A DNA stretch of 63,597 nucleotides, counting the filler, from Collodictyon triciliatum (lineage: Eukaryota): assembly GCA_043381765.1 (NCBI GenBank). It is 12 parts of 12 records of this genome, joined end to end, with 100 filler letters (N's around TTAATTAATTAA, not from the genome) between each part and the next. Parts side by side here need not be neighbours in the genome. Positions count along the whole stretch, not along the records: positions 60,293 to 63,597 come from JBHJMP010005453.1; 11 more parts are not named here. One strand, 5' to 3'. The position numbers and the translations under genes were made by a program. Each line of letters begins with the position of its first letter. The stretch's first letter is position 1. The notes under the pieces are model-generated. The model was not told where the DNA came from, did not search any database, and worked only from the letters and a program-made list of their open reading frames with translations. This document shows, piece by piece, positions 10,881 through 63,597 of the stretch.

Positions 10881-13800
10881 ATGTCTAAAGAACCTACGAG
10901 CACAAAGCTCGCACCGGCTTTCACCGGCAATGTGTTTCTTACGCTTCTGGTCGTTATTGCCGTGCATTTTAATCGAGTTGTTCCAGATGCTTACATGGTC
11001 AGTTTTTGGTCATGTTTTTACTATTGGTCTCTTACGTCTCTTGGTTCTGTTCAGATTTTGCGCTTTGCTCAGAGGCAGAGTCTCGCAATAAGACTATACT
11101 CATCGAATTATACAGCCTATACATATGCGACTAACATATCTCCCTTACAAGCACCATTGAGTACCATCCAAAGATGGCATATCTAATCAAAAAGCCTTCC
11201 ATATCAAATTATATAGGATGAGATATTTCACATTAAGCAAACACAACAATACTGCAGAGGCGATTTTTTCACTTGGGACCCAAAGATAACAACCCCTCCT
11301 GGGCTGTAAGAACTATACAAAATTCAGTATTTGTTAGGAAAAAAACCTGGATATTTAAAGTGTTGGTCTTGGGTGATGTAACTTAGTTTCGTTTGAATCA
11401 AAAACATGTTTTTTTCCCACTCAATTTTACTTTAATGACCTTGGTTCCTTAAAAAGAGAGGATCTATATAAATATACTATTTTTTGATTAGTTATTATGC
11501 TTCATGGCTCATGTCCAATTTTTTTGGAATTGTAATGGGCGCACCAACGACAAACTACTGCGCAATACCGTTAGTTCTTTTTCATAAGGATTCCGTACAC
11601 ACTTTTACAATCTAATTCGTTTTAAATATTCTGATTTTATTATAAAAATATTTTGTGTTTCATGCATGTACAACTTTACCATCAAAAGACTTCTGAGGGC
11701 AACAAACATCATTTTTGCCGTCTTAAATTTCTTTCTGGTCCATTCGATAATAAAGCTGAAGCATCCTCTATCATCTACAGAGGATATTACTATCCAAGTT
11801 TATTTACTTTCATTTATAAACATTTGAAATTTATGCAATTGTGTCGAGTATAATCTCCAAGTGGGTATTTATGCACAATTTGCAATTGAAGGACTCGCAA
11901 TTCCTTACAAGAAATACTTGTAGGCTCTATCAGTCTCTACTTTTCCAGTGGTATTCATATTTTATTTCCTATATTACACGGATACCGGGTCTCTTTCATT
12001 TGTCCTATTATCTTACTTGATGGAGGAAAAACGCCGTACTTTTCTATCCTCACTGGTGAGGTCTAAATCTATAACAAATGGAAGGCTTTAAATGAAAAAT
12101 AATAATGTGATAGTATCTGATGATTATAAGTGGTTTATGTAAAGCATGTTGATGCCTAATGTTCATTCATAATGCTTCCATTTTCTTAATGTCTTTCCGG
12201 CCACTCGCTTTTTAAGTTCGGTAGTCTGTCACTTCTATTTCGGCAAACAAATATTATTTGGATTGGCCTCATCTGCTTCGAAGGAATAAATAAGATTGTG
12301 ATGGATAAAGACCCCCACATAGGAGGTATATGCACATATTCTAATATCATATTTTAAAGTTGTATTTTAATCATGAAAATGAGCTTGAAAGGTGCTATTT
12401 GATATCAGCAGCCAAAAAAATGAAGTTAAGTAATTTTTCAATAATAAATCACCAACTGAGTTCTTGATAAAGCAAAGTTCTTTATATTAGGCCGTGAATG
12501 GTTTCGTAGATTCACACAGAATATAAACAAAATTATAAAATTTTCAATCCCATATGTGGTGGTTCTGTGTATATTTGTATTTTTTATCTATATGAACGAG
12601 GGAATTGTTCTGGGTATGTTTGCATATTACTCCATTACTATTACTATTACTATTACTATTACTATTACTATTACTATTACTATTACTATTACTATTACTA
12701 TTACTATTACTATTACTATTACTATTACTATTACTATTACTATTACTATTACNACTATTACTATTACTATTACTATTACTATTACTATTACTATTACTAT
12801 TACTATTACTATTACTATTACTATTACTATTACTATTACTATTACTATTACTATTACTATTACTATTGCATGTGTCACAAGCGATTCACATCAAAATATT
12901 CTCAAGGTGACCGTTCCATGCATTTTGCTGTATTTCATGCCCCACAAGCAAGTTTTTTTTGTTTTTGTTTCATGAGTCTTTACATTTGTAATTTTTGACA
13001 GAATAAAACAATACAGTTAACATTCCTTTATCCATATATCATTCCTTATAGCTTCTATACTTTTTACTGTTTTATTGCTGCTTCCATCCAGGGCATGTGA
13101 TTGAATCGTTCTTGCCTGTCTTGAAAATCATAAGTAATTTTTCTTGCATTGTTTTATTTATTTGTATTTCCCAGACCTAATGTTTGTTTGTTTGTTTGTT
13201 TGTTTGTTTGTTTGTTTGTTTGTTTGTTTGTTTGTTTGTTTGTTTGTTTGTTTGTTTGTTTGTTCATTTTTAGTTAAAAAAATATTAATAAACAGCGAAA
13301 TCAAGATACACCATATTTGCAGTTACTTGCATAATTTTTACTATGTTTTTCTGTATCCAACAGTACACGTAAGTTGAATTGTATCTTACAAAACAAAAAT
13401 TCCAATATGAAACCTTGAATACATTTCTGTTATAAAATACACTTTCACCGCTAACTATATATGATTTTATTACAATTGATGTTCTTGTGGGTTTAAATTG
13501 CTTCTTTTTTCTCCTCGGCTATAGTTTAGTTCATCCGTATATTCTGGCAGATAATCGGCACTTCACCTTTTAGTACGGCCAACATAAAATTATCTCACGT
13601 AAAAAATGCTGTTCTCTTGTGTAAAATAATCAAAACCTAAAGCATGACATTCTATCCACAGCTTCTGGAGGCGTGTTGTAGACAGAAATGAATATTCTCG
13701 CTATTTGATGATACCTGTGTATACCTTTAGTCTGTTTCTCGTGCTTGTGCGCCTCCGTAATTCTCAATTTCGCTGTATCCCACCTGATATCTTTCAACAG

Positions 13801-17944: not shown

Positions 17945-18044
17945 NNNNNNNNNNNNNNNNNNNNNNNNNNNNNNNNNNNNNNNNNNNNTTAATTAATTAA
18001 NNNNNNNNNNNNNNNNNNNNNNNNNNNNNNNNNNNNNNNNNNNN

Positions 18045-21000
18045 GATGGCTCTAAAATCGTTTCTGGAAGTGATGATAATACAGTCAAAATTTGGAATCT
18101 TTCTGATGGAGCTTTGATTCGCACGTTGACTGGTCATACTAGTGTTGTTTCCAGTGTTACTGTTACTCCCGATGGCTCAAAAATTGTTTCTGGAAGTGCT
18201 GATAGAACAATCAAAATTTGGAATATTTCTGATGGAGCTTTGATTCGCACATTGACTGGTCATAATAGTCAAGTTTACAGTGTTGCTGTTTCTCCTGATG
18301 GCTCAAAAATTGTTTCAGGAAGTTTTGATAGAACAATCAAAATATGGAATCTTTCTGATGGAACTTTTATTCGCACGTTGACTGGTCATACTGGTTATGT
18401 TATGAGTGTTGCTGTTACTCCTGATGGTTCAAAAATTGTTTCTGGAAGTGCTGATAGAACAATCAAAATTTGGAATATTTCTGACGGAGCTTTGATTCGC
18501 ACATTGACTGGTCATACTGATATCGTTTGGAGTGTTGCTGTTACTCCTGATGGCTCAAAAATTGTTTCTGGAAGCAGGGATACAACAATTAAAATTTGGA
18601 ATCTTTCTGATGGAGCTTTGATTCGCACATTGACTGGTCATACCAGTAGTGTTGATAGTGTTGCTGTTACTCCTGATGGCTCAAAAATTGTTTCAGGAAG
18701 TAGGGATACAACAATTAAAATTTGGAATCTTTCTGATGGAGCTTTGATTCGCACATTGACTGGTCATACTAGTTATGTTAACAGTGTTGCTGTTACTCCT
18801 GATGGCTCAAGAATTGTTTCTGGAAGTTATGATAAAACAATCAAAATTTGGGATGCTCCAGAGTTACTTTGTTCTGCTGGTCAGTTTTATGATACAGTTA
18901 CAAAGTCATGTCAACTATGCCCATCCGGAAGCTATAGTGCTGGAGGTGCCTTGTCTTGTTCTTCATGTCCTGCTGGCACATACAATCCTTCAACAGGTTC
19001 TACAAATGTTGGTGCTTGTATATCATGCGCAGCTGGCACATACAATCCATCAACAGGTTCTACAAATGTTGGTGCTTGTATATCATGCGCAGCTGGCACA
19101 TACAATCCATCAACAGGTTCAACAAGTGTTGGTGCTTGTCTTTCATGTGCAGCTGGAACATACAACCCATCTGTTGGTCAAGCAACATGTCTTTCATGTG
19201 TAGCTGGTACATACAACCCATCAACGGGTTCTACAAATGTTGATTCCTGTCTTTCATGTGCAGCTGGCACATACAATCCATCAACTGGTAAGTCTGCTTG
19301 TCTTTCATGCGCAGCTGGAAAATACAATCCATCAACAGGTTCTACAAGTGTTGGTGCCTGTCTTTCATGTCCTGCTGGCACATACAATCCATCAACGGGT
19401 TCTACAAATGTTGATTCCTGTCTTTCATGTGCAGCTGGCACATACAACCCATCAACAGGTTCTACAAATGTTGGTGCTTGTCTTTCATGTGCAGCTGGCA
19501 AATACAATCAATTAACTGGTCAAGCAATCTGTCTTTCATGTGCAGCTGGCACATACAATCCGTCAACCGGTCAAGCAACCTGTCTTTCATGTGTAGCTGG
19601 TACATACAACCCATCAACGGGTTCTACAAATGTTGGAGCCTGTCTTTCATGTGCAGCTGGCACATACAATCCGTCAACCGGTCAAGCAACCTGTCTTTCA
19701 TGCGCAGCTGGCACATACAACCCATCAACAGGTTCTACAAGTGTTGGAGCCTGTCTTTCATGTGCAGCTGGTACATATAATCCATCAACAGGTTCTACAA
19801 ATGTTGGTGCTTGTCTTTCATGTGCAGCTGGTACATATAATCCATTAATTGGTCAAGCAACCTGTATTTCATGTGCAGCTGGCACATACAATCCATCAAC
19901 AGGTTCTACAAGTGTTGGAGCCTGTCTTTCATGTGCAGCTGGCACATACAATCCATCAACAGGTTCTACAAATGTTGGTGCTTGTCTTTCATGTGCAGCT
20001 GGTACATACAATCCATCAACTGGTCAAGCAACCTGTATTTCATGTGCAGCTGGTACATACAATCCATCAACTGGTCAAGCAACCTGTCTTTCATGTGTAG
20101 CTGGTACATACAATCCATCAACTGGGCAGTCTGCCTGTATTTCATGTGCAGCTGGCACATACAACCCATTAATTGGTTCTAAAAGTGTTGGAGCCTGTCT
20201 TTCATGCGCAGCTGGCACATACAATCAATTAACTGGTCAAGCAATCTGTCTTTCATGTGCAGCAGGTACATACAATCCATTAATTGGTCAAGCAACCTGT
20301 ATTTCATGTGCAGCTGGTACATACAATCCATTAATTGGTTCTACAAGTGTTGGAGCCTGTCTTTCATGTGAAAATGGAACATACAACCCATCAATTGGTC
20401 AGTCTACCTGTATTACATGTGCAGCTGGAACACACAACCCATTAATTGGTTCTACAAGTGTTGGAGCCTGTATCTCATGCGCAGCTGGCACATACAATCC
20501 ATTAATTGGTCAAGCAACCTGTCTTTCATGTGCAGCTGGCACATACAACCCATTTATTGGTCAAGCAACCTGTATTTCATGTGCAGCTGGTACATACAAT
20601 CCATCAACTGGTCAAGCTACATGTCTTTCATGTGCAGCTGGCACATACAATCCATCAACGGGTTCTAAAAGTGTTGGAGCCTGTATTTCATGTGCAGCTG
20701 GTACATTCAATCCATCAAGTGGTTCTACAAGTATTGCTGCCTGTCTTCCATGCGCAGCTGGCACATACAATCCATCAAGTGGTTCTACAAGTATTGCTGC
20801 CTGTCTTTCATGCGCAGCTGGCACATATAATCAATTAACTGGTCAAGCAACCTGTCTTTCATGTGCAACTGGCACATACAATCCTTTAAATGGCTCTTCT
20901 TCTATTGAGAATTGCTTATCGTGTGAACCAGGAACATTCAATGATAAAAAGGGGCAAATTAAATGTAATCTATGTGAGCCAGGAACTTACACCAGCGATA

Positions 21001-23234
21001 AAGGAAGGAATATTTGCCAAGATTGCCCACCTGGGCAATACAACAGCAAATACGGTGAAATGGAATGTACTTTGTGTCCTTCTGGGACATACAACTCTTT
21101 TAAAAAGAGTAACAGTTCTTCATTCTGTATTGAATGCGAACCAGGAAATTTTAATAGTGTGATTGGACAAGATAAATGTGATGAATGTCCCACCGGGTTC
21201 TATTCGAATGCAAGAGGACAGAAATTCTGCTCGCCATGCTCTTTTGGACAATACTCAAACAGAACAAAATCAACAGCATGCGAACTATGTCCAGAAGGCA
21301 CATTTAATACAAATATAGGTTCCCCTAACATCGAAAGCTGCCAAAGCTGCCCTCAAGGAACATTCTCATCTGTTTCAGGAAAACTTGTGTGTGATTTGTG
21401 TCCCCCTGGAAAATATAGCGATTTACCAGGTCAAAATAATTGTTTCATATGTCCCAACGGAACTTATAGCACCACCTATGGAGCAACTAGTCTAAATTCT
21501 TGCCTTAAATGCCCTGTTGGAACCTATGGAGACGAAACGAAAATCTCTTGCACCTCATGCCCAGCTGGCACATTCAATAATATCGAGGGCTCATTCGGAA
21601 TGTCTTCATGCATGAAATGTTCACAAGGAAGTTACAGTATAAGAGGTAGCTCAACTTGTACAGAGTGCTCACCTGGATATTTTGCACCGGATTTTACTGT
21701 GAATGGTTGTGGCAAGTGCCAAGCTTGTGCAGAAGGCACGTACAACTCAAACTCGGGCTCATATGGAAACAAATCATGTATCGAATGTCCACAAGGCACT
21801 TGGAATGATAAAGATGGTCAAGCATCATGCTCATCGTGTCCAGCTGGTACATTCAACAATAAAACTGGCTCACTAAATCAATCGCAATGTATTTCATGTC
21901 CAAATGGAAGCTACAGCTCAGAAAGAAGCTCATCATGTAGTCTATGCTTATCAGGATATTATCAAAAAGAAGACATTATAAAAGACTCAAGCTCATGCTA
22001 TGCTTGTCCAAAAGGCACATTCAACTCAAACTCCGGCTCATATGGAAACTCATCATGTATCGAATGTCCACAAGGTACTTGGAATGATAAGGATGGTCAA
22101 GCATCATGCACATCATGTCTAGCCGGAACATATAATAACAAAACTGGCTCACTAAATCAATCGCAATGTATTTCATGTCCAAATGGAAGCTACAGCTCAG
22201 AAAGAAGCGCATCATGCAGTCTATGTTTATCAGGATTCTATCAAAAAGAAGACATTATAAAAGACTCAAGCTCATGCTATGCTTGTCCAAAAGGCACATT
22301 CAACACGAAATCCGGCTCATATGGAAATAATTCATGTATTGAGTGTCCACAAGGTACTTGGAATGATAGAGATGGTCAAGCATCATGCACATCATGCCCA
22401 GCTGGTACATTCAACAATAAAACTGGCTCACTCGATGAATCATCATGTATTACATGTCCAAATGGAAGCTACAGCTCAGAAAGAAGCTCATCGTGCACTT
22501 TGTGCTCATCAGGATTCTTTCAAAAAGAGGTAGTCGCAAAAGACCAGAAATCATGCTATGCTTGTCCAAAAGGTACATTCAACTCAATATCCGGTTCATA
22601 TGGAAATGCATCATGTATCGAATGTCCACAAGGTACTTGGAATGATAGAGATGGTCAAGCATCATGCACATCATGTCTAGCTGGGACATTCAACAATCAA
22701 ACTGGTTTATTCAATCAATCATCATGCATTTCATGTCCAAATGGAAGTTATACTCCAGAAGGAAGCGCATCATGCAGCTTATGCTTATCAGGATTCTTTC
22801 AAAAAGAAGGAATCATAAAAGACTCAAAATCGTGCTATGCTTGTCCAAAAGGCACATTCAACTCAATATCCGGCTCATATGGAAACACATCGTGCACCGA
22901 ATGTCCACAAGGCACTTGGAACGATAGAGATGGTCAAGCATCATGCACGTCATGTCCAGCGGGTACATTCAACGATAAAACTGGCTCATCCGATCAATCA
23001 TCATGTATTTCATGTCCAAATGGAAGCTACAGCTCAGAAAGAAGCTCATCATGCAGTTTATGCTTATCAGGATTCTTTCAAAAAGAAGGAATCATAAAAG
23101 ACTCAAAATCGTGCTATGATTGTCCAAAAGGCTCATTCAACTCAATATCCGGTTCATATGGAAATGCATCATGTATCGAATGTCCACAAGGTACTTGGAA
23201 TGATAGAGATGGTCAAGCATCATGCACATCATGT
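18045..23234 (+). CDS. WD40-repeat protein fused to a long Cys-rich (ephrin-receptor-like/GCC2-GCC3-type CxxC) repeat array; intronless, partial at both ends
   Basis: One open frame spans the whole 5190-bp contig. It holds 6.5 GH...W(N/D) repeats with a 126-nt period (18045-18853), then dozens of C-x-x-G-T-Y/F...C-x-x-C units. Confidence 0.92.
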
Positions 23235-23497
23235 NNNNNNNNNNNNNNNNNNNNNNNNNNNNNNNNNNNNNNNNNNNNTTAATTAATTAANNNNNNNNNN
23301 NNNNNNNNNNNNNNNNNNNNNNNNNNNNNNNNNNTTTTGGTTTTTTTGGTTTTTTTGGTTTGTTTGTTTTTTGCTCGAGTAGCAAGAAAAAATGAACATC
23401 ACTACATAGAAATAACGACATGATAGTATCGATAATGTGTCATGATTTTTTAATCACTATTATTTACATTTTCAAGGTATGTTGTTGTATTCAATTA

Positions 23498-39345: not shown

Positions 39346-39409
39346 CCTTTATAATTACTAAATGCTACTTTAAACCCTATCCAGTTATGAACTTGTGAAA
39401 AATCCGCTC

Positions 39410-41086
39410 ATGACGCCCAGCAGTTTTTCATTCGACACCCTTCTGAGGCTACAACACTCCTACGAACCAAAAAACCAGTCCATTGACCACTGTTCTCAAT
39501 TACTCATCAAAAGGGAAGGACTACAAACGATACCATCCAGTATATTTACGCTTACATGCCTGTCCTCTCTGATACTCTATGAGAATTATTTATCATCTTT
39601 ACCGTCGGACATATCGTTGCTGGTTCACCTTAGAGCTATAGACGTGTCTGAAAACCGTATTGTCTCTTTGCCGAACTCCATTTCTCTATTAGAGAATCTT
39701 ACAGACCTCAACCTCAGCACTAACACACTCGGCTATTTTCCGTCGGTCATATGTTCAATAAAGAATCTAAGGATACTTGATTTGTCATTCAACCAGCTCT
39801 CATCCCTCCCGCAAGAATTATATATGATGACAAGTCTCGGCTCCCTTAATGTGTCCGTAAATATGCTATCAATAATGCCGGACGGAACATCGGGACTGGT
39901 TAATCTTCACAGTCTTTACATTTCAGAAAATCACTTTCCCGTATTTCCGCCCAAAGTGTTGCTTCTAACCCGCTTGACTAGCTTGTATATCGCAAAAAAT
40001 ATGGTTTGTAATAGAGTTCAATCATATTTTACATCGCTTAAAGATGTTCTTTTAATTAATGAATTTATTAATTATACTTCTCGCAAAATAGTTCGAAGTG
40101 CTTCCTCCGCATATCACTGCGCTGACGAATCTTGTTGATTTTTACACCGAGACAGACCTCTATGACTTTGTGTATGAACCTTCAGGAGAAGGCGGTGACA
40201 TTACATATTATAATGGATATCTTTTTATCAAATCAGCACCTCGAGGTATAACCAGCCTTCCATGCTGGAATAATACGGATGAGAATGATGATGGTATTTC
40301 GGTTTCGCAACACCTCAGAAAACTGCACTTGTATGATGTTGCTGTATGTTGTTGTTGTTGATTTTTTTTTTTAAAAAAAAAAAAGGCAATCTATTCATAA
40401 ATGAATCGGATAATTAATGATGTGGCAGGGCGAAAATGACATGAGGGTGGATTGGGAACCAAGCCAGCAGCAATTGTTATACGAATCGCTGAGTTTCTCG
40501 GGTTGGAATGTGGTAGATATGTCCACAGGCGTATCTCTCCTGACAAATCTGACCTACATGAATGTTAGCTATGCTGGGGTATAAACCTTGTAATTGTCGT
40601 GTTTTGATCTTCCGTGTATAAGTTATCATTATCCCTTAAGATTGACTATTATCTATAAAAAAAATTAATCAAAAATTGGAAACACAGCTCACTGCACTTC
40701 CTGGTGCTATTTGTCTGATTTCTGGACTTAAAATACTGAACATATCAAGCAACCAGGTGTGTTTGGCTATGATTGAATATGAACCAAAATTTGATATATG
40801 GCTGTCTACTTCTTTAAAAACACACATTATTATTATATTATTCATTGAAGATTATGAATTCACATTATAAATTAAACGTAGATTTCAAAGTTGTCTTGTT
40901 TAATCAACAATCTCAGGAGTCTTCAAAGCTTGGATATATCAAATAATCAAGTAAATTGAATAAATTAATATTTCTGATTACAAGTCCTTTTCATCAGGTT
41001 ACAATGTACGTGTTGTTTTTGATAAGAAAAAATATTCTTTATAGGTTGTTGATTTATGCTTCAGCTGTGGCGCCAACAGGGATTGA
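39410..41086 (+). CDS. Leucine-rich repeat protein (LRR-A), 6 exons, possibly 5' partial
   Basis: 23-aa LxxLxLxxNxLxxLP repeats. Exons 39410-40003, 40092-40343, 40429-40578, 40688-40756, 40882-40950, 41045-41086, all joined by phase-0 GT-AG introns. Confidence 0.85.
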
Positions 41087-49779: not shown

Positions 49780-51747
49780 TCTAACGCGGTGTCTTTTCTT
49801 TTCTCCAATCCTTTCTTTCCTGTATTCTTTTCTTTTCTTCCGTTCTCTTTTCTTTTCTTGAACGTGAGGTATGATGTCTCTGGATTTGTCTTGAAATCTC
49901 GTTTGCTTGTAATGCCCTCTGGATTTCCGTGAAATTGTGGTAGCTCAATTATCTAATTATTTATTCAAAAGCAAGAAGGTACAGATAAGATGGTGATTTT
50001 ATCAATCACATTATCTGCAAGCTTCAATAAATGGTCGACCAGATGCAAAGAGGCTATGGATTTTAATCAATTGTTTCCAATTTACAACACCTTATTATTC
50101 GAAGCATCCAGGTATTCGAGATTGCAGAGTCGGTTGATACCCTCAGGAATACTCGTTATCTTGTTGGTGTTACGTGGTTGCTCGGTTTTATTATTTGAAC
50201 ATATTACTTATTGAAATCAAAATTGAAAATGATTTTTTTTTGATACCTTGTTGTTTGAAATATCGAGAGCTTTGATAGAAGTCAGACAAAACAGATGCTC
50301 TGGGATGTCGGTGAGCTATGTCATTCGCATTGGCATTTAGTGTACATAAATTTACGCTGAGTTATTGATTCATTAAGATCATTACGTGATTTTCTGAGAG
50401 ATTCAAAAAGGTCATGTTTTTTTAAAAGTGTGATGCTCTCTGGCAAAGTTGTAAGCCTCCTTCTGCATAGGCTGAATGAATGGAATTCGATTTGCTCCCT
50501 TTTTGGAGTCCATCCTGGCTCCGAGATTGATTCTAACTGTGTTTGTGGTTTACGTTGCTTTTTTTTTCTTTATTGTTTTTGAAAATATATAGCAAATTGT
50601 CTGTATCATCATCGATATATTTACCATCTCAAAAAGCTGCAAATTTCGAATTTGCTTGTAACTCAAGCACATTTTGTAATGGTAAAACGGAAGAGCTGTG
50701 ATGCCAAGCGGTGCTATCTTCAAGTGTACCCTTCCAGACTTGTCCACAATATCCAGACTTTGCAGATTTGTGAGTGCTGTGATTTTCAGCGGGAGCTCCT
50801 CTATCTAAACACATGATTGTTGGCCACTTTTTCCGAGAACATCAACATCCATATATCAAAAACTTGAATAATTTAACACCTACAGGGTTTTCCGCCATAT
50901 GCAGTTCTTTCAGACCGGTCAAAAACCTTATTTCCGGTGGCAAAGATGACAGGCTATTGTCATCAACATCGAGCATTGTGAGACCAGTCAAACACGATAT
51001 TTCTGGTGGTAGGGATGACAGCTGATTCTCATGCAAATAAAGCTGTGTGAGACCAGTCAAACGCGATATTCCTCGAGGCAGCGACGACAAAGTATTTACA
51101 CAAACATTAATACCATTGAGACCAGTCAAACACGATATTTCTAGGGGCAGTGACGACAACTCGTTATTATTAAGATTAAGCTGTGTGAGACCAGTCAAAC
51201 ATGATATTCCTAACGGTAGTGAAATAAGCTTATTTATATGACCATGAAGAGATGACAGACCAGTCAGTTTTGATATTGCTGGAGGCAGTGAAGACAGTTG
51301 ATTGTAACCAACATTAAGGTGAATGAGACCAGTCAAGCATGATATTCCTGGAGGCAGTGACGACAGTTGATTGCCATTAACATTAAGAACTTTGATGCTT
51401 GTCAAACATGATATTCCCGGAGGCAGTGACGACAGCTGATTGCTTTCAACATGAAGAAATTCGATGCCTCTCAGTCGTGATATCTCTGGAGGTAGGGACG
51501 AAAGTTGATTTCTACTAACATTAAGAACTTTGATGCCTGACAAAAACGATATTTCTGGAGGCAGGGACAACAGTTGATTGTAAGAGATATCCAGTTCCTC
51601 CAGACGATCCAAAAGGAACACACCACGAGGCACAATAGTGAAACGCTTTCCGACGATATTGAGGCTCAAAGAGTTTCTCAACGTGGTGATGTCAGAAACC
51701 TTTGCGAGTCGCCGGAGCTCCTCCAAAGACGCAGTGTGTTCGTCCAT
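49780..51747 (-). CDS. Leucine-rich repeat protein (LRR-B), paralog of LRR-A, with a 1-nt frameshift in exon 3
   Basis: Exon 51747-50884 holds 11 LRRs. Exons 50804-50625, 50536-50386 (151 nt), 50315-50247 and 50159-50091 match LRR-A exons in order and sequence. The last exons are uncertain. Confidence 0.8.
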
Positions 51748-51832
51748 GCCAGCAGAAGTGGGGGAGGCAACTTGGGCGGATTCTGAGGATTCTGAGGATG
51801 TTGTGAGCGTTGTGAGCGAGTCGTGTGTTTCA

Positions 51833-52048
51833 GTTTGTTTGTTTGTTTGTTTGTTTGTTTGTTTGTTTGTTTGTTTGTTTGTTTGTTTGTTTGTTTGTTT
51901 GTTTGTTTGTTTGTTTGTTTGTTTGTTTGTTTGTTTGTTTGTTTGGTTGTTTGTTTGTTTGGTTGTTTGTTTGTTTGGTTGTTTGGTTGTTTGTTTGTTT
52001 GGTTGTTTGGTTGTTTGGTTGTGTGTTTCATTTTGTTTGTTTGTTTGT
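51833..52048. repeat. (TTTG)n microsatellite upstream of LRR-B
   Basis: Read directly from the sequence. Confidence 0.97.
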
Positions 52049-52619
52049 TGCATAGCGCTCCTTACTTTATGTGGCTGTGTTTGACAAATGACTCATGCAA
52101 AAGAGCAGTGCTTGTGCGTGTTGACGTGTGAAAGCACAGCGCGTTGTTATTGGACGGCGTGGTTTGCTTTTGGAGGAGGGAGAATGACGGTGCGCGATTA
52201 TGTTGTGGCTCTGACTTGAACGTCTAAAAGGCCACACCTTCAATGCCGAACCACCGATAGAAAAGTGGATGTATGTATCGTCTGTTTATGTTTATATAAT
52301 TGCGGGATTTTTTTTTATTTGCTGCTTTGGTTGTGCTGTGTTGTTTGAGGCTTTTTGTGTTGTGTTGTTTGAGGCTTGATTGTAATATGTTCATTGTCAC
52401 AAGGAGCAAATATAGGGTGGCGCTTGTGTCATGCGCCGCAATATTCCCACAGAATCTCGCTTGCATTCGGCCGTGGTGGATGATGAACACATGTTATAAA
52501 ATCAATAATACTGTATATTCCGAAATAGAAAACATATCATCACAATTATATGGAGCACTACAGCCTCTTTCGTCCTTTATCTCCCAGGTTTTTTTTTTTT
52601 TTTGTTGTTGTTTTTAACT

Positions 52620-54170
52620 GCATCTAGGGCTTAAATAGGGGATGGCGAATATCATGCGGCTCTTTTCACATACATCTCTTCCATTGATATCACAGTATGG
52701 AAGAATGAGTGTACGTCAGCAAGCTATTCAAGAGGCTGTATTGGACAAGGCTTTCCCGCCTGGATAGATAGATTTCTCGTCTCATCAAGTAATACGCTGA
52801 AAGAAGCACCCATACCACATGAGGACCGCATCATATGTCTTCCTTGTGACTTCCCACAGCATCCTAGAGTAGTGTGGCATTTGGTATTGCGCGCAAAATA
52901 GGATGTTGGAGGTCTGAGTTGATCAGGAGCACAATCAATCTGGCACATCTTCTTGTGAGCGGATTCGATTACTTTTTGAGAGAGCACTAAATAAGCGTGA
53001 ATTCGATTGGGTTGTATCCAATGGGGCTCACGCTGCATCGTGGGGAAGTTATTGTTGCATGGAATACACGCACAGCTATCTAGAGCTCTCCATCACCGAT
53101 ATTGAGCAGTAAAGTACAGTATCTTGAAATTCGGGCGAGTGCGATGGATAAGATGCCAGAATACTCGCTGTCAAAATCCTTTCGGATGGGTAAGCATATT
53201 TGTCCACCATCTCATCGCGAGCGATGTCCATGCAATACCAGGCGTTATGGGTCCCAGTCCTCCCTCTGTAGGTGGCTTAGTGAGCGTCTTGATATTATAT
53301 TCTGATTATTCGTAGTGATGAAGTTGCGGCAGATGTCTTCCAGCTCCTTCAGCCTCTTGAGGTTCAGCAAAGTGCCTTTCATGTGGTAGATAAGGGTCGA
53401 CACCATCACTTGGTTCCAGAACCTTACTTTCCCCACGTCCGAGAGATGAAAGTTGCTCCACACTGATATTTTCGACTTGATGTCCTCAACCGGGCTTGTC
53501 CATTTGTTATCCGATTGTGGACCGAAGATGATACCAAGATACTTGAGTGGATGTGACGGTGGCTTCCACACGATGTTCCCTAGAAACATATGTGCATCCT
53601 GAAAACCGAAAAGAATTCCATCTGTCTTGTCGTAGTTGATTCTTCTGCTGACAGCTCGTGTGTATTCTTGCATGCATTTGTTGGCGAGTGTGGCGCCTTC
53701 GGGAGACCGTAAGATGAATGCTATGTCGTCTGCATATTGAAGTAGCAGTTGGTTGTGCACCTTGTTTTGGTTTCGAAAGTGGTTTGCAAGGCAGTCAGCG
53801 ACAAAGTTGCAGAGCAGTGGTGCAAGTGGGCAGCCTTGATACACCCCGCTCTGTCTTTGAATTGCATCAGTATGTCCGTGTGCCGTGGGTATCCTCGCTG
53901 TTGCATTGTCGTGCAGTTTCTTGATAAGACTGGTGAATCCGGTGCAGAAGCCTCTTTTGTGTAGGATGGTTTCCAGTGCTTCATGTTTCACATAGTCGTA
54001 TGCTTTCTCCAGGTCGTAGAAAATCACAGCGACGGGTGTCCCGCTTACTTGATATTCCATGTACTCTTTGTTGACAAACCAGGTGTTTGTGTCGATGTTC
54101 CTTCCGTTCATGAAGCCAATCTGCTCTTTGGATATGAGTTGGTCGGTGATGGGTAATATGCGATTTCTGA
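52620..54170 (-). mobile_element. 5'-truncated, degenerate non-LTR retrotransposon (L1/Tx1-like RT)
   Basis: RT motifs ISKEQIGFMNGRNI, FYDLEKAYDYV, GVYQGCPLAPLL, LQYADDI, INYDKT, LKYLGI. After a frameshift comes PTEGGLG and then an in-frame TGA. No endonuclease domain is present. Confidence 0.92.
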
Positions 54171-54647
54171 GTAATTAATAAGGCAGTACAGCATCGACGC
54201 GCGTCAACTGGGGTGTTGAAACTAGATGGTCTGTAACTTTTGGAATTTTTTTTTATTTTTTATGTATTTATTGGTTTAAGATTTGGCGTAACAATCATAT
54301 TGTTATGTATATTTAGTGCGGATTAAACAGACTTTCCTTCGTTTTCAATTTTTGTGTTTGTTTCGTCGATTTCCTCCCGAAAGCCAAAGTGTGCTTCTGC
54401 ATACTTAGAATGGTATCAGTTACAAAAGTCCAGAAACCGCAAAAGCCGCCCCGATCGAAGTAGCAACAGCAACAAGCAAAAGCTAATTACCTATTCAACC
54501 AGACAGTAAACATCTTTTTCGTGTCTTCCAATACACTTATGCCTCACCAACCTTCTTATGACAACACGGAAGATTATCCTCTTGTTTCCCGCACCCGTAT
54601 TTTTTGGTTGTTTTAGTTTGTTTTAGTTTGTTTTGCTTTTCATATCC

Positions 54648-58200: not shown

Positions 58201-58927
58201 AAAGTAAACGAACGAAGAAACTACAAGGGAAAAAAAAAAGAAAATATATGAGGGCCTTTTAAAAGGAGTTATCTAGCTAATTTTTCTACACATAAACATG
58301 CTTGAAAGTAATTTACCGATGGAAACCAAGTTTTGAAGACAATAATCACAGTAGTTCGATTTACAACATGGAGTTGATGTGGGGTCTGTCAAAATCTCCT
58401 TGCATTTTGGGCATATATATTCTGCTGGCGCGGAGGACTTGTCAACCCTGGCAGTAGTTTTTTGGTCCCTGTCATATTACGTTTTTTCAAGTCAAATCAA
58501 TGTAAACCCGATCATGTCAGTCCGCTATGAATGTGAATAAAGAAACTCTTTTGTCTCGATTTATTCGTTTTAGATACAGTACAAGAATAAATAATAGAAG
58601 AGTAATGTACGCCTATTAAGGCTCTATAAAAAGAGGGGAGGGGAGGGGAGGGGAGGGGATTACTAACGGAACTTAACAGTGTAATAAATAACAAGTAGAG
58701 GATGATGGAGAAGGAGAACAGAATGGACTGCAAAGATGATTGAGTGCTAAATTGGAGGTTTTTAGCCCTGAGAATATCATTGACTATCATACATTTTTGG
58801 CACGTCGATGAAGTATTGGCCATTTCCCATTGGAATTGCACCTCTGTGGTCCTCCGATACTTGTCTGAAGTTTGACCGTGGAATTCCCTGTGGGTTTTTT
58901 TGATATTTTAGGAGGAGGGGATTAAAA

Positions 58928-59022
<95 letters not shown>

Positions 59023-59665
59023 GGGGAGACCTTTTACTCTAATTGGAATTGAATTAGAATAAATTATTTGCTAATTGAATATATGTATGTATACTGCACG
59101 TACATACTGAGACATTTAAAAAAATTTTAAAAAATATATCTCGTACCCTTGGGAGTTGGGAACTCTGAAAGAGGGCGTTTGAATCCCCGCGCTTGGGACA
59201 AGACTTTGCATCATGTCCTGTTTTGTTACACTTTGGGCACGAGCCCTGGTGAAATGGAAATATTAAATAAAATGTATCAAATGAGCACATAGAAGGGGCA
59301 GGTAAAGCATGGAATAAACAATCCACAGAATCATCATCATCATAATAATAATATTCACACATTCTGTGTTGATTGTATGAGTAATCTAATTACATCTCTC
59401 CCAGTTGGTTCGTTGATACTGGTAGTGTTTCGGTCATTGTCGTCGTCACCTGGAGTAGGATTATAAAACGTAATGAAAATTGGTAATAATTCAATTATGG
59501 GTCTTACGCTTGAATGAGGTCTTGTATCCTTTACGATTAGACTTATGGTTTGGGGGAACTCACTGTCGTTTGGCTTCTTTGTATCATTCATACGACTAGA
59601 TTTTGACACTAGCTTGACAATCACGCGCGCATCGTTTCGAATTAACTCAGTTTCTTCCGTGTATT
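55222..59665 (-). CDS. RBBP6: E3 ubiquitin ligase / 3'-end processing factor RBBP6 (Mpe1) homolog, 5' partial
   Basis: DWNN tail EYTEETELIRNDARVIVK, zinc knuckle CPKCNKTGHDAKSCP, TGIPRS motif, RING-like EYICPKCKEILTDPTSTPCCKSNYCDYC, and a long K/E/R/D/S-rich last exon (55222-~57060). Confidence 0.88.
58928..59022. repeat. (AAT)n microsatellite in an RBBP6 intron
   Basis: Read directly from the sequence. Confidence 0.97.
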
Positions 59666-60420
59666 CTATAGTAATTTTAGTATGTAAGAGAGTGTGTATC
59701 ATTTGTCGTCATCATTCCCTTTGATCCTTTTGTTTAACCCTCGGCAAGCAAACAAATTGAGTGAGAACTTATAGTTTGTGGACAGGTTTGAATATGATAA
59801 AGTACGATAATAAAGAATAGCATGTAGAGTAGCCATGTTTCAAATAGAAATGTTGGACGTATGAGGGAAAATCCTTTCTCTTTTCTTTCTAACACGTGTT
59901 GGTTAGATGTAATTGAGTGCAGAACTTTCATCATAATTTGGTAGCATACATACAAAATAATTGCTTGGTGTGTACAAGTGTGCATATAAGCTCATGTATA
60001 AGCAGCAATTTCTCTTTACAAGAAAAGCTGTGGAAGACTTAACATTGCGCTTCTTGTCAAAGAAAGAGAAAGACAAAGACAAAGACAAAGACAAAGAGAA
60101 AGAGAAAGAGAAAGAGAAAGAGAAAGAGAAAGAGAAAGAGAAAGAGAAAGAGAAAGAGAAAGAGAAAGAGAAAGAGAAAGAGAAAGAGAAAGNNNNNNNN
60201 NNNNNNNNNNNNNNNNNNNNNNNNNNNNNNNNNNNNTTAATTAATTAANNNNNNNNNNNNNNNNNNNNNNNNNNNNNNNNNNNNNNNNNNNNTTTTACTT
60301 TTTTACTTTTTTACTTTTTTACTTTTTTACTTTTTTACTTTTTTACTTTTTTACTTTTTTACTTTTTTACTTTTATTATGTGAATTATTCACTTTTACAA
60401 TAATGATTAAAAAAAATTAC

Positions 60421-60657: not shown

Positions 60658-61754
60658 CTCCTTAACTGTCCAGCGGCTCTCTATTGTTCCTTTATATTTT
60701 GGATGCATGTATGAACCAATTAGTTGTCAGGTATTAAAACCACTACATACGTATTCATCACAACGAGTTGGAGTGATATTTTCTAGACAGGGTCTGAGTT
60801 CATAAATATCTTAGTCAAAAGTGGTACATATATCAGTACATAACGCCACAGAAAAGAGATTGCCGATCCACAAGAGCGTCCCAAATTAATATACTACTTT
60901 CAAAGGTTTACCACCGCATGCAAGGGACTTTACCTCTTGCAGTACTTAGTATTTAAGCAGTGAAGAAATTGAGGGGAGGTTAAATCTCTGCTGCAGTTAA
61001 TTGGCTAGTAAGACAGAAAGGAAAAGGCCAAGTCAAGAGAGCAGGGGATGGGGTGTAGGACTACAGAGCCAACTTTCTCTTGCCCTTCTTGCTCCCTCTG
61101 TATTCGATAAGTAAGACAGCAATACCAAGAGCGTGTGGTGTGTTTCTGTGTCGATGGTGCGACAATAAGAGTATGTGTGTCCCAGATAGCACAGCCGTGA
61201 AAATTATGGAGTTGGTAAAGAGTTATGCGCCTGGTGAAGCCGAGGGCTCGTGGGTTTGTGGGCGGGTGCTTCTGCTAGCGCTGCCGGTAAGTGGTACTTC
61301 TGCGATGCCTGTGCGAAAGGGGGTGCAAATTATCGCCAAATCCACGCGGTGATGTATTCCGAACCTGTCAAGCACTCCAGGGGAGAATCAGGACATTCAA
61401 TGAAATACGAGTCTGTGGGGCGATGGGCTAATAGATGCGTTCGTTGTAACCGTCCAATATGTCCAATTATGCAATTGTATTCCGTTGAATCCAAAGTTGG
61501 GCTGGTTTTCCATATGAAATACGAGACTAATAAATGTTCATTGAAGAGATTGGTATTTCAAATGAGACAGGGTTTCATAATATTGAAAATATATTTTACT
61601 ATTGGAATTAGATCCTGCCCATTATTATAATAATCTAGTATAGTTAAATCAAATATATTCCATATTAAGATGATACTTCTGGATTTGATAAGGCAAAAAA
61701 AAAAAACTGCCTCATGGCATAGAATCTGTTGCGGCCATCTCAAGCATTTTTACA

Positions 61755-61875
61755 TTGTACTAGGAGTACACCATCTTTCGATCGGTAAACCTGGTGTGCT
61801 AGTATCCAAGGTCTCACCACTTTTTTCACAAAGATTGTGTAATGGCGAAGGCTGCCAGGAATGACCCAACAACCT
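61755..61875 (-). ncRNA. Candidate Fanzor omega-RNA scaffold
   Basis: Three consecutive stem-loops lie directly 3' of the Fanzor ORF. The first two have seven G-U pairs that form only on the minus strand. Confidence 0.65.
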
Positions 61876-61887
61876 TTTTTTTTTTTT

Positions 61888-63597
61888 AGAGGAAGGTGTA
61901 TGCATATTTTGAAGAATTGGAAGAACTTTGTTGAGTATATTATAGGCGCTTTTAAAGTCCCTTGTCAAGAATACACTTTGTTTGCTTTCTGAGCGATTGC
62001 ATTCTTTACATATGAGACATCTATACTCCTTTTTTTGAATTTCCTTTCAGTATTATATATTCTAGTTCTTTTTCGCAGTGGCGACACATCTTGGAGGTTC
62101 TAAATTCACCTACACTAATTTTTCAAAACGTTTGGATGGTATTTTTCGTAATCCCCTTCCGATTGTTGGCTTATAATGCTTCATCGGACATTTTCTGCTC
62201 CAGTCTCCATACGCCGGCATAACGTCCTTGCCAAATGTCTTTTCGATTCGGTTCATAAACAACTGTTCACTTCTTTTTGTTTTAACACACTGTCTCCATC
62301 TCATCTTTCGAAAAGTCACTTGCTCATAAAATCTGAATGATTATATCTGGTATCTTGATTCCATAAATACATATTTTCTATTTATTTTTTTTCATAATCG
62401 ACCGTGCATGAATTATGTTTACTCAGTCCTGTCTCTAAATCGATTAAAGATACTCTTGATGTCTCAAACTGCTGATTCTCTTCAAAAGTCCTGAGACCAA
62501 AAGAAACAGCACTTTGTAAATCTGTTGTCATGCATATACCAAAATGATTGTACTTTACTTTTTTATTTTCGCGCAAGAGTATTTTGTGATTTTTAAGAGA
62601 TTTGCTATAATGTCTTCTTTGGTGAGCCGTGTAACGTAATTTCTTACCTGTCTCATCTACCATGTAAACCAAATTAAACTTGCCTGCGTCCACTCCAACT
62701 ATTTTTTTCCCTAATAAAGATAACTGCTCTTTGGAAAGTTCATCTATATAAACATATTATTGGTTCTTTTGATTATATTTGATTCTTGAATTTGAAATAC
62801 CTTTCTTCTCTAACAAAATGACACCACCAAGCCGTCTGTTTGTATCATGTATGTAAAATAGTAGTCTCTTTGATGAAATATCCTCTTCTTCATTTCAAAG
62901 AACTCATCCCATATGGTCTCTTTGCATCCTGATACATTCTTCAGTAATAATTTTTTTTACAGATGATACTAATAGATCAATCAAACATGCAGTAGCTAGA
63001 GTAATATGACATGGTATATTGTTAGTTCTTATAGAGATTGGTTGAAGCAGTTTGGTCCCAATGTCATCAAAAATGTGATTCATGTAAATCAGACATGGAA
63101 TGTACTTATTTGGAATGACTTTGACGTCATATTCGATACCTTTTACAATATCGCTGGTTATGATATGATGCTAACGCGTTGTAGCCCATCCTTTATATTG
63201 TTCCGGTATTTCGAGTTTCTTGAAGATGGCTTTTTTTTAACCTTCGTAACTCCGCCTTTTTAATAGCTTCTGTAATATTCTCATCTTAAGGAACTATTTG
63301 GTTTATAAAGCGCAGTAACCTCTTTACAAAATGTTCCCTTATGTTATTATGATAAGTTGCTAGCACTTGCTTCGCTAAGTACGGTAATACATGAGACGGT
63401 CCAACCAACGGAAAGCGTTCTTCTCGGGACAAAAGGAATCGAAAATCATATAGATAGAAAGCCATCATATCTTTACTCAAACCTGGATGGTTTAAAAATG
63501 CGGGTCTATCTTGTGGAACTATTCCGACTGTCTTTAAAGCGTACAAAAAAAAAAAACACATTTCATCGATTGTTGGGTGTTGTTGTGCTTTCAATAT
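61888..63597 (-). pseudogene. Fanzor1 (eukaryotic TnpB/Cas12-related RNA-guided nuclease), inactivated; the 5' end lies beyond the window
   Basis: Motifs in order: NNIREHFVKRL, YDVKVIPNKYI, QPISIR...IP, MIQTDG, RuvC-I VGVDAG, KLRYTAHQRR, YGDWS, PTIGRGLRK, RuvC-II EFRTSKMCRHC, CKEC, RuvC-III TRDFKSAYNIL. Premature stops at 63286 and 63171, plus several frameshifts. Confidence 0.9.

Follow-up and report, generated by a model that had tools for sequence, protein, structure and literature searches.

A candidate omega-RNA 5′ domain in the last codons of a decayed Fanzor1 gene of Collodictyon triciliatum

An omega-RNA candidate at the right end of a dead element

The window analyzed here (63,597 nucleotides of DNA from Collodictyon triciliatum) carries near its end the remains of a Fanzor1 gene, and the last codons of this gene hold three tandem hairpins on the Fanzor sense strand (61750-61874). 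We conclude that hairpins 1 and 2 (61813-61874) are probably the 5′ domain of the omega-RNA scaffold of this dead Fanzor1 copy. The candidate is distinguished by the fold of the two hairpins and its strand bias, by their position relative to the protein-coding region, by a covarying counterpart in related elements, and by one significant match to a covariance model, which falls on the same strand. From these observations, we infer that the window stretch itself was once an omega-RNA.

In the arrangement that we propose, positions 61750-61885 (minus strand) would correspond to the right end of a Fanzor1 transposon that is now dead and that had terminal inverted repeats as its boundaries, and the same region in living relatives would encode an omega-RNA scaffold. 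The terminal repeat would belong to the 3′ domain (from 61812 to either 61766 or 61750), beyond which the adjoining flank would supply the guide. If published work on Fanzor1 and TnpB is a reliable indication, the region in an intact element would be transcribed on the sense strand and the scaffold would bind the Fanzor protein. Approximately 15-20 nucleotides of flank at the scaffold 3′ end would then pair with DNA beside a short adjacent motif, and the RuvC site would cut. Because the protein gene of the window copy is broken, its RNA module is most likely a decaying remnant. The relevant features are as follows.

61750..63597, minus strand: decayed Fanzor1 gene (pseudogene), located by tblastn with the intact relatives P0008, P0004, P0018, and P0021
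61875..61887, minus strand: A13 run just 5′ of hairpin 1, encoding KKKK in an open frame (direct reading)
61850..61874, minus strand: hairpin 1, 10 base pairs (61874-61865 with 61850-61859), 5-nucleotide loop, four G-U pairs; candidate counterpart of helix H1 of the relatives
61813..61849, minus strand: hairpin 2, outer stem of 9 base pairs (61849-61841 with 61813-61821), three G-U pairs; candidate counterpart of helix H2 of the relatives
61839-61835 with 61827-61831, minus strand: hairpin 2, inner stem of 5 base pairs, followed by a bulge of 5-6 A nucleotides and then G-U
61804-61799 with 61758-61763 and 61797-61792 with 61768-61773, minus strand: hairpin 3, both stems entirely Watson-Crick
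61752..61812, minus strand: 3′ domain including hairpin 3; possibly, on a tentative assignment, equivalent to the terminal inverted repeat and long closing stem of the relatives
61766, minus strand: candidate right end, after GGUGUAC (61772-61766), the best local match to the relatives' end motif
61750, minus strand: candidate right end, after UGUAA (61754-61750), where the matches to models R2 and R3 end
61730..61765, minus strand: candidate guide flank, from 61765 downward if the element ends at 61766, or from 61749 downward if it ends at 61750

The Fanzor1 pseudogene and its intact relatives

The initial annotation, made from the raw sequence, assigned the open reading frame to a Fanzor, and this assignment is borne out by a Fanzor1-type pseudogene. 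Comparison with the four intact relatives by tblastn, together with an inspection of stop-to-stop frames, reveals that the alignment falls into three pieces, distributed over two frames and interrupted by several in-frame stops and by frameshifts. The 634-residue relative P0008 matches the window frames with a summed E value of 1e-81. The N-terminal part of the pseudogene, comprising approximately the first 70 residues, lies outside the window, whose end (63597) cuts off the start of the gene. In the remainder, the motifs RuvC-I (GVDAG), RuvC-II (GEFRTSK, in a shifted frame), and RuvC-III (RDFKSAYN) are discernible.

P0008 also matches three Fanzor1 proteins of solved structure, namely those of Spizellomyces punctatus (8GKH; E = 9e-37, residues 14-607), Parasitella parasitica (E = 7e-34), and Guillardia theta (9CER; E = 7e-16). 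Furthermore, the 62110-62340 piece of the window directly matches the P. parasitica protein (E = 0.0013). Because of these matches to Fanzor1 proteins of solved structure and the direct match of the window piece, the gene is, on sequence homology, a pseudogene of Fanzor1, a RuvC-like nuclease with a zinc-ribbon TNB domain. The Pfam Cas12f1-like TNB domain is listed in six of eight relatives; P0018 exceeds the cut-off (28.8 versus 26.3 bits), and the other five lie below it.

Several searches with parts of the pseudogene returned no useful signal. Nothing meaningful was found when seven frame pieces were compared with Pfam, a self-comparison detected no second copy of 61400-63597 within the window, and a distant-similarity search of a phage collection gave no matches. 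The C-terminal piece used as a protein query gave no matches in the 'longer' search and one in the 'near' search, which was P0108, a 136-residue fragment with 93% identity over 30 residues. P0108 is uninformative about the tail, as its sequence diverges right after the RuvC-III motif. An insertion of approximately 35 residues after RuvC-I (window 62460-62570, minus strand) is common to the window and fragment P0002, is missing from the full-length P0008 and from every other fragment in that part of the alignment, and might be a marker of the sub-lineage to which the window belongs.

Intact relatives are numerous in environmental collections. A full HMMER search with the RuvC-I piece as the query recovered 105 proteins at E ≤ 0.001, the nearest of which are short fragments with 55-89% identity; the full-length proteins have 620-700 residues. 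Scanning with an alignment of the same piece confirmed 562 relatives on metagenome contigs and 229 on viral contigs, and the best 80 of each set were kept (L001-L160). Among the best 80 viral-contig loci, 32 reside on contigs with 'GVMAG' in their names, which we take to be a label for metagenome-assembled giant-virus genomes. None of the best 80 plus best 80 loci is close to the window, the top identities being 40-64% over the RuvC-I piece. Nucleotide similarity between the relatives and the window ends at approximately 61931-61940, just past the RuvC-III codons.

Of the best 80 of 562 metagenome loci, 74 show a C-terminal match, and these form two groups. The tails of clade A end in ...EKVGQSVDF..., and those of clade B, which is larger, end in ...EKVRPS. 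A collection of prokaryote genomes yielded a single locus (L161, contig JAIXWE010000047.1). This 2.7-kb contig belongs to a MAG titled Alphaproteobacteria and carries a clade B-like Fanzor; a viral or eukaryotic origin with subsequent mis-binning is probable.

Folding of the candidate stretch

The three hairpins proposed in the initial annotation are present with the coordinates, pair counts, and G-U counts originally given, as determined by direct reading and by a check of all pair lists, which contain no non-standard pairs. On the minus strand, the 121-nucleotide stretch that includes them folds at -37.6 kcal/mol (z = -2.26), and 6 of 200 shuffled sequences fold as well. The plus strand folds at -28.1 kcal/mol (z = -0.23; 78 of 200 shuffles as good), which is at chance level. 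When hairpins 1 and 2 are evaluated by themselves (61813-61875), the minus strand reaches -24.7 kcal/mol (z = -3.59) with none of 200 shuffles as good, versus -8.8 kcal/mol (z = +0.64; 146 of 200) for the plus strand. The hairpin 3 region (61750-61812) is at chance level against shuffles on the minus strand (z = -0.69; 46 of 200) and on the plus strand (z = -1.19; 22 of 200).

The folding signal of the 121-nucleotide stretch resides wholly in hairpins 1 and 2, and these two hairpins are real and strand-specific. It had been claimed that the fold of the entire stretch favors the Fanzor sense strand, and a comparison of both strands with shuffled controls had been suggested. This preference holds for hairpins 1 and 2, which surpass the shuffles on the minus strand only, but it does not extend to hairpin 3. 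The latter forms equally on both strands because its stems are all Watson-Crick. Enforcing hairpin 3 gives a fold of -38.7 kcal/mol, which equals the free minimum-energy fold, and its stem then extends to 61752.

No match to an Rfam family was found at the curated score. The sole match is to snoTBR5 at 61682-61777 (minus strand; 19.1 bits versus a gathering score of 44, E = 0.26), and this sub-threshold match was taken as chance.

A covarying block at the 3′ ends of related genes

In both clades of relatives, nucleotide conservation begins approximately 20 codons past RuvC-III and continues through the stop codon to a point 47-85 nucleotides beyond it. The conserved block stops abruptly at ...GGTGTAA in both clades, and unrelated flanks follow. 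In all three loci examined, the block end is one arm of a terminal inverted repeat of 34-35 nucleotides (97-100% complementary), and the partner arm is located approximately 2.3 kb upstream. Some members (L121 and L053-L055) have early stops, and their downstream nucleotides are still conserved. Because nucleotides are kept where the frame closes early, the block is, on comparative grounds, constrained as RNA or DNA and not as protein.

RNAalifold applied to the nine sequences closest to the window, which belong to clade A, predicts 40 pairs, of which 20 carry compensatory changes. In the predicted order, the structure consists of H1, a nested H2, a small H3, and a long stem H4 that encloses H5 and pairs the terminal strand back. 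H2 is formed by an outer stem and an inner hairpin, with G-U after an A-rich bulge. Covariation is also seen for H1 in clade A. The core of H2, aligned for 43 sequences of both clades, is 94.3% paired, with 8 of 13 pairs changed on both sides; none of 500 shuffles reaches its covariation score, and slid controls pair at 40-54%.

When 62 sequences are fitted to the clade A structure, in an alignment that is biased toward this structure by construction, pairing is found in 89.8% of cells, and changes on both sides occur in 30 of 40 pairs. None of 500 shuffles of this alignment reaches any of the measures, and slid controls pair at 41-53%. Helix 6 in the same alignment has 7 of 10 pairs changed on both sides and is 93.4% paired. 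RNA and DNA roles might coexist at the terminal strand of the relatives because the inverted-repeat arm also pairs in a covarying stem. By analogy with published Fanzor systems, we infer that the covarying 3′ block of the relatives is an omega-RNA.

Placement of the window stretch in models of the relatives

A covariance model built from the nine clade A sequences, with the window excluded (model R2), was used to scan both strands of the entire window without filters. The best match window-wide is 61750-61885 on the minus strand (22.4 bits; rough E = 1.6e-4; rank 1 of 19), and the next match scores 12.5 bits. This match appears with filters off only and is not reported under default filters. 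For comparison, R2 assigns 18-57 bits to the Fanzor 3′ ends of clade B loci that were absent from its build. The R2 alignment places H1 on hairpin 1 and H2 on hairpin 2, and the support from this model for membership rests on these two helices.

Other models gave no significant match at the site. Model R1 (the H2 core, from 43 mostly clade B sequences) scores 8.1 bits there (E = 5.3; rank 12 of 23), and model R3 (62 sequences, in which the H1 pairs are lost) scores 11.6 bits at the same coordinates as R2 (E = 1.1; rank 3 of 21). Three nhmmer profiles of the relatives' 3′ block (A3, A4, and A5) gave no matches at the site with E values up to 100, and primary-sequence homology is for this reason undetectable there. 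Because R1, R3, and nhmmer are not significant, the case for membership is carried by one of three models together with position and layout. The layout shared with the relatives is specific: hairpin 1 directly adjoins hairpin 2, which is nested and has 5-6 A nucleotides and then G-U after its inner stem. Furthermore, this A5-6/G-U arrangement occurs in the same reading frame as the E-K codons of the relatives.

Model R2 also produced extra matches in the loci of the relatives, at L010:1-44, L150:3842-3916 (minus), L015:2313-2428 (minus), L004:1537-1586 (minus), and L009:460-509 (minus). The match in L004 is on the opposite strand approximately 2.3 kb upstream and coincides in part with the left terminal-inverted-repeat arm at that locus, the match in L009 is at a similar distance, and the match in L010 resembles the end of a second, adjoining element.

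The right end of the element and the guide flank

The right end of the window element has two candidate positions, 61766 and 61750, and neither is significant. The relatives end in GGTGTAA, and a 12-column end matrix gives its best local score (2.8 bits) at 61777-61766; 114 window positions score equally, so the value is not significant. An end at 61766 is consistent with the absence of related contigs below 61762 in sequencing run X4 (described below). In favor of an end at 61750, this position is where the long stem comprising hairpin 3 is closed. The initial annotation had put the element end between 61755 and 61740, a range that includes the second candidate, at which the R2 and R3 matches end, but excludes the first. 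The left end of the element would be at approximately 64.1 kb, beyond the window. A look-alike of the terminal motif on the plus strand (61548-61573; E = 6.8-12) has no Fanzor-like frame upstream and was dismissed as chance.

By the layout given for Fanzor and TnpB omega-RNAs in the pertinent sections of PMC10432273, the guide derives from the flank, and the sequence beyond 61766 or 61750 might by analogy be the guide source. A T12 run (61695-61706, minus strand) located 45-70 nucleotides past the candidate element end mirrors the A13 run before hairpin 1. It was considered as a stop for RNA polymerase III, and nothing supports that role.

Hairpin 3 had been counted as part of the scaffold, an assignment that finds no homology or statistical support of its own, given that its z score is -0.69 and that the R2 and R3 alignments both bypass the 3′ domain through a local jump. 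Perhaps, then, the sequence at 61750-61812 is a feature of the transposon end that acts as DNA, such as a terminal or subterminal repeat for a transposase, or is partly unrelated flank, rather than an RNA helix. Its all-Watson-Crick stems and the slightly better folding of the plus strand (z = -1.19 versus -0.69) would be expected of such an element, as would the fact that the last 34-35 nucleotides of the relatives are a terminal inverted repeat. Moreover, if the element stops at 61766, where the end motif matches best and below which X4 cover soon ceases, half of hairpin 3 would be in the flank. Two observations argue for an RNA helix instead. The terminal strand of the relatives also takes part in the covarying long stem (helix 6), and the fold with hairpin 3 equals the minimum-energy fold. 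We consider this alternative for the segment, whether as a DNA-level feature or as partly unrelated flank, unlikely.

The reading frame through the hairpins

The limits of the Fanzor RNA module found in the first-pass reading of the raw sequence can now be corrected. The A13 run had been placed at the end of the open reading frame and the hairpins directly downstream of it, and neither placement agrees with the frame. The run encodes KKKK within the frame, which stays open through all three hairpins down to the TAA at 61750-61752. The tail of the pseudogene also aligns weakly with the C-terminal tails of intact relatives ('EKSGETLD' versus 'EKVGQSVD'). Because the A13 run is in frame, the frame is open to this TAA, and the tail aligns with those of the relatives, the hairpins are, by homology, an overlap with the last ~40 codons of the Fanzor frame. 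The length of the A13 run differs between related copies, with one X4 contig missing four of the A nucleotides, and the run is aligned to the A-rich leader of model R2. Thus, the initial reading of the stretch as an omega-RNA scaffold is retained in that hairpins 1 and 2 fall at the covarying block of the relatives and provide the top R2 match, but it is revised in that the scaffold overlaps the tail of the reading frame and does not follow it.

Given this overlap, the hairpins might be nothing other than coding sequence for the Fanzor C-terminal tail, and their pairing might be incidental. The open frame to 61750, the weak alignment of the tails, and the failure of nhmmer and two of the three covariance models to see anything at the site are all compatible with this possibility. 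It does not account readily for a strand-specific fold with a z score of -3.59, for an R2 match at E = 1.6e-4, or for a stretch in the relatives that is conserved in its nucleotides, with compensatory changes, past both premature and normal stops. Incidental pairing is therefore a decidedly unlikely explanation for the hairpins, and we favor the omega-RNA scaffold.

Related copies and the fate of the RNA module

None of 17 listed sequencing runs contains half or more of the words of the stretch, and 11 contain small shares; no run recorded as RNA was found to carry it. Four runs were compared with the stretch at 80% likeness, and the three metagenome runs among them gave a few short pieces. 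Run X4 gave 338 related contigs, of which 24 are at ≥99% identity, 66 at 95-99%, 132 at 90-95%, and 116 at <90%. The label 'RNA?' for this run is a guess, and X4 is not counted as evidence of expression. Its contigs cover every bin of 61762-63597 and none below 61762. Because of this coverage, hairpins 1 and 2 can be considered part of a repeated family in the organism from which X4 derives.

Between 61839 and 61875, the X4 copies show at least four differences from the window, four of them among those listed (327 are beyond the list). At 61872, in hairpin 1, the window has U (U-G) and related copies have C (C-G). In hairpin 2, two G-U pairs of the window, at 61846 and 61842, are A-U and C-G in related copies. 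The difference at 61862 is in the loop of hairpin 1. Three of the four listed differences therefore exchange a G-U pair of this copy for a Watson-Crick pair, and one is in a loop; three of three structure-preserving differences would arise by chance with a probability of approximately 1 in 8. This pattern fits a scaffold that, judging from these copies, had better pairing in the family and diverged in the window copy through transitions. Stem covariation, which had been suggested as a check, is found in the block of the distant relatives, where half of the 40 clade A pairs show it; the window's own lineage provides only the four listed differences, all compatible with the fold. With at least four listed differences within 37 nucleotides of the hairpins, the earlier impression that the RNA is better preserved than the protein is not sustained.

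It could also be speculated that this dead copy still produces its RNA module and that the Fanzor protein of intact copies takes the module up in trans and is thereby directed to cut a sequence resembling the module's flank. Hairpins 1 and 2 are still fully paired by way of G-U, and the abundance of the family in X4 (338 contigs, 24 at ≥99%) indicates that intact copies may exist. Nevertheless, such putative trans use is very unlikely when weighed against the at least four listed differences from related copies within 37 nucleotides and the fact that the 3′ domain, the least conserved part here, is the one that joins scaffold to guide in the solved Fanzor1 complexes as portrayed in the relevant portions of PMC11423790. 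The broader proposal that dead Fanzor copies across the genome keep working omega-RNA modules that are loaded in trans by intact copies is likewise putative and highly improbable. If true, each decayed insertion would supply a guide for its own flank, and the copies would constitute a dispersed guide library rather than inert debris.

Other features of the window

An unbroken frame of 1761 residues at 17997-23282 (plus strand) encodes N-terminal WD40 repeats and 36 ephrin-receptor-like cysteine-rich repeats. The host genome that this frame suggests is eukaryotic and poor in introns. The neighborhood also contains an RVT_1 reverse-transcriptase fragment (E = 1.4e-23) and two frames with leucine-rich repeats, at 53245-54174 (minus), 50842-52092 (minus), and 39374-40138 (plus). 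Long simple repeats at 58904-59070 and 60040-60190 include a trinucleotide run (poly-N, poly-L, or poly-Y depending on the frame) and a GA/AG dinucleotide run that adjoins a run of N's. Between 5193 and 60292 there are eleven pairs of 44-base N runs, the members of each pair being 12 bases apart; the pairs recur every ~5.27-5.29 kb with one step of 7.46 kb. The sequence between the pairs is not a tandem repeat, and there is a single N at 12753.

Comparison with known systems

Published descriptions of Fanzor RNAs provide a frame for these findings. According to the parts of PMC11423790 that deal with them, Fanzor1 omega-RNAs have 75-150 nucleotides, of which the first stem-loop is conserved and the rest varies. 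The account in PMC10530073, as far as it concerns this point, describes Fanzor omega-RNAs as overlapping the inverted repeat and extending past the open reading frame.

The candidate resembles the system of SpuFz1 from Spizellomyces punctatus (Saito et al. 2023, PMC10432273; 8GKH), whose protein belongs to the same family through P0008 (E = 9e-37). In the relevant passages of that report, the SpuFz1 element has inverted repeats of ~30-35 nucleotides and a sense-strand RNA at the right end that spans the 3′ repeat and takes its guide from the flank. Its omega-RNA, transcribed from the right-end repeat, is described there as a 75-nucleotide scaffold with a guide of 14-15 nucleotides. The same passages place this scaffold after the stop codon and describe a single stem-loop that separates SL1 from the guide. 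In contrast, and comparing by description, the candidate here would be ~110-125 nucleotides long, would overlap ~40 codons, and has a nested second helix.

The GtFz1 system of Guillardia theta is similar in other respects. As portrayed in the sections of PMC10432273 and PMC11423790 that treat it, GtFz1 has a long scaffold (150 nucleotides) with several stem-loops, and its omega-RNA overlaps 17 C-terminal codons of the gene (PMC10432273). However, the overlap is longer in the window copy, and the GtFz1 protein is more distant (P0008 versus 9CER, E = 7e-16).

A comparable organization is also attributed, in the pertinent parts of PMC10432273 and PMC10530073, to the TnpB omega-RNA of IS200/IS605 elements such as ISDra2, in which the scaffold overlaps both the nuclease gene at its 3′ end and the right end, and the guide comes from the flank. 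The ISDra2 TnpB system differs in being prokaryotic and in having no terminal inverted repeats of this kind. Compared with TnpB RNAs, Fanzor RNAs reach further past the open reading frame, according to the corresponding statements in PMC10530073.

The closest relatives found are the Fanzor1 elements L001-L160 from freshwater metagenome and giant-virus contigs. Their parts occur in the same order as in the window, namely H1, then H2 (nested, its A-rich bulge preceding G-U), then a 3′ domain that is closed by a long stem and ends in ...GTAA. They differ from the window copy in having intact genes (~630-700 residues) and an extra linker and small hairpin between H2 and the closing stem, and they lack detectable primary-sequence similarity to the window beyond the RuvC-III codons. 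The window copy, in turn, is set in a eukaryotic chromosome-like context. These intact elements of freshwater giant-virus contigs are the source of the covarying 3′ block with its sharp inverted-repeat end, and this block could help in selecting natural Fanzor1/omega-RNA pairs to test. Overall, the comparison suggests that the Fanzor/omega-RNA system discussed herein is of an already known kind, with nothing that suggests a new mechanism.
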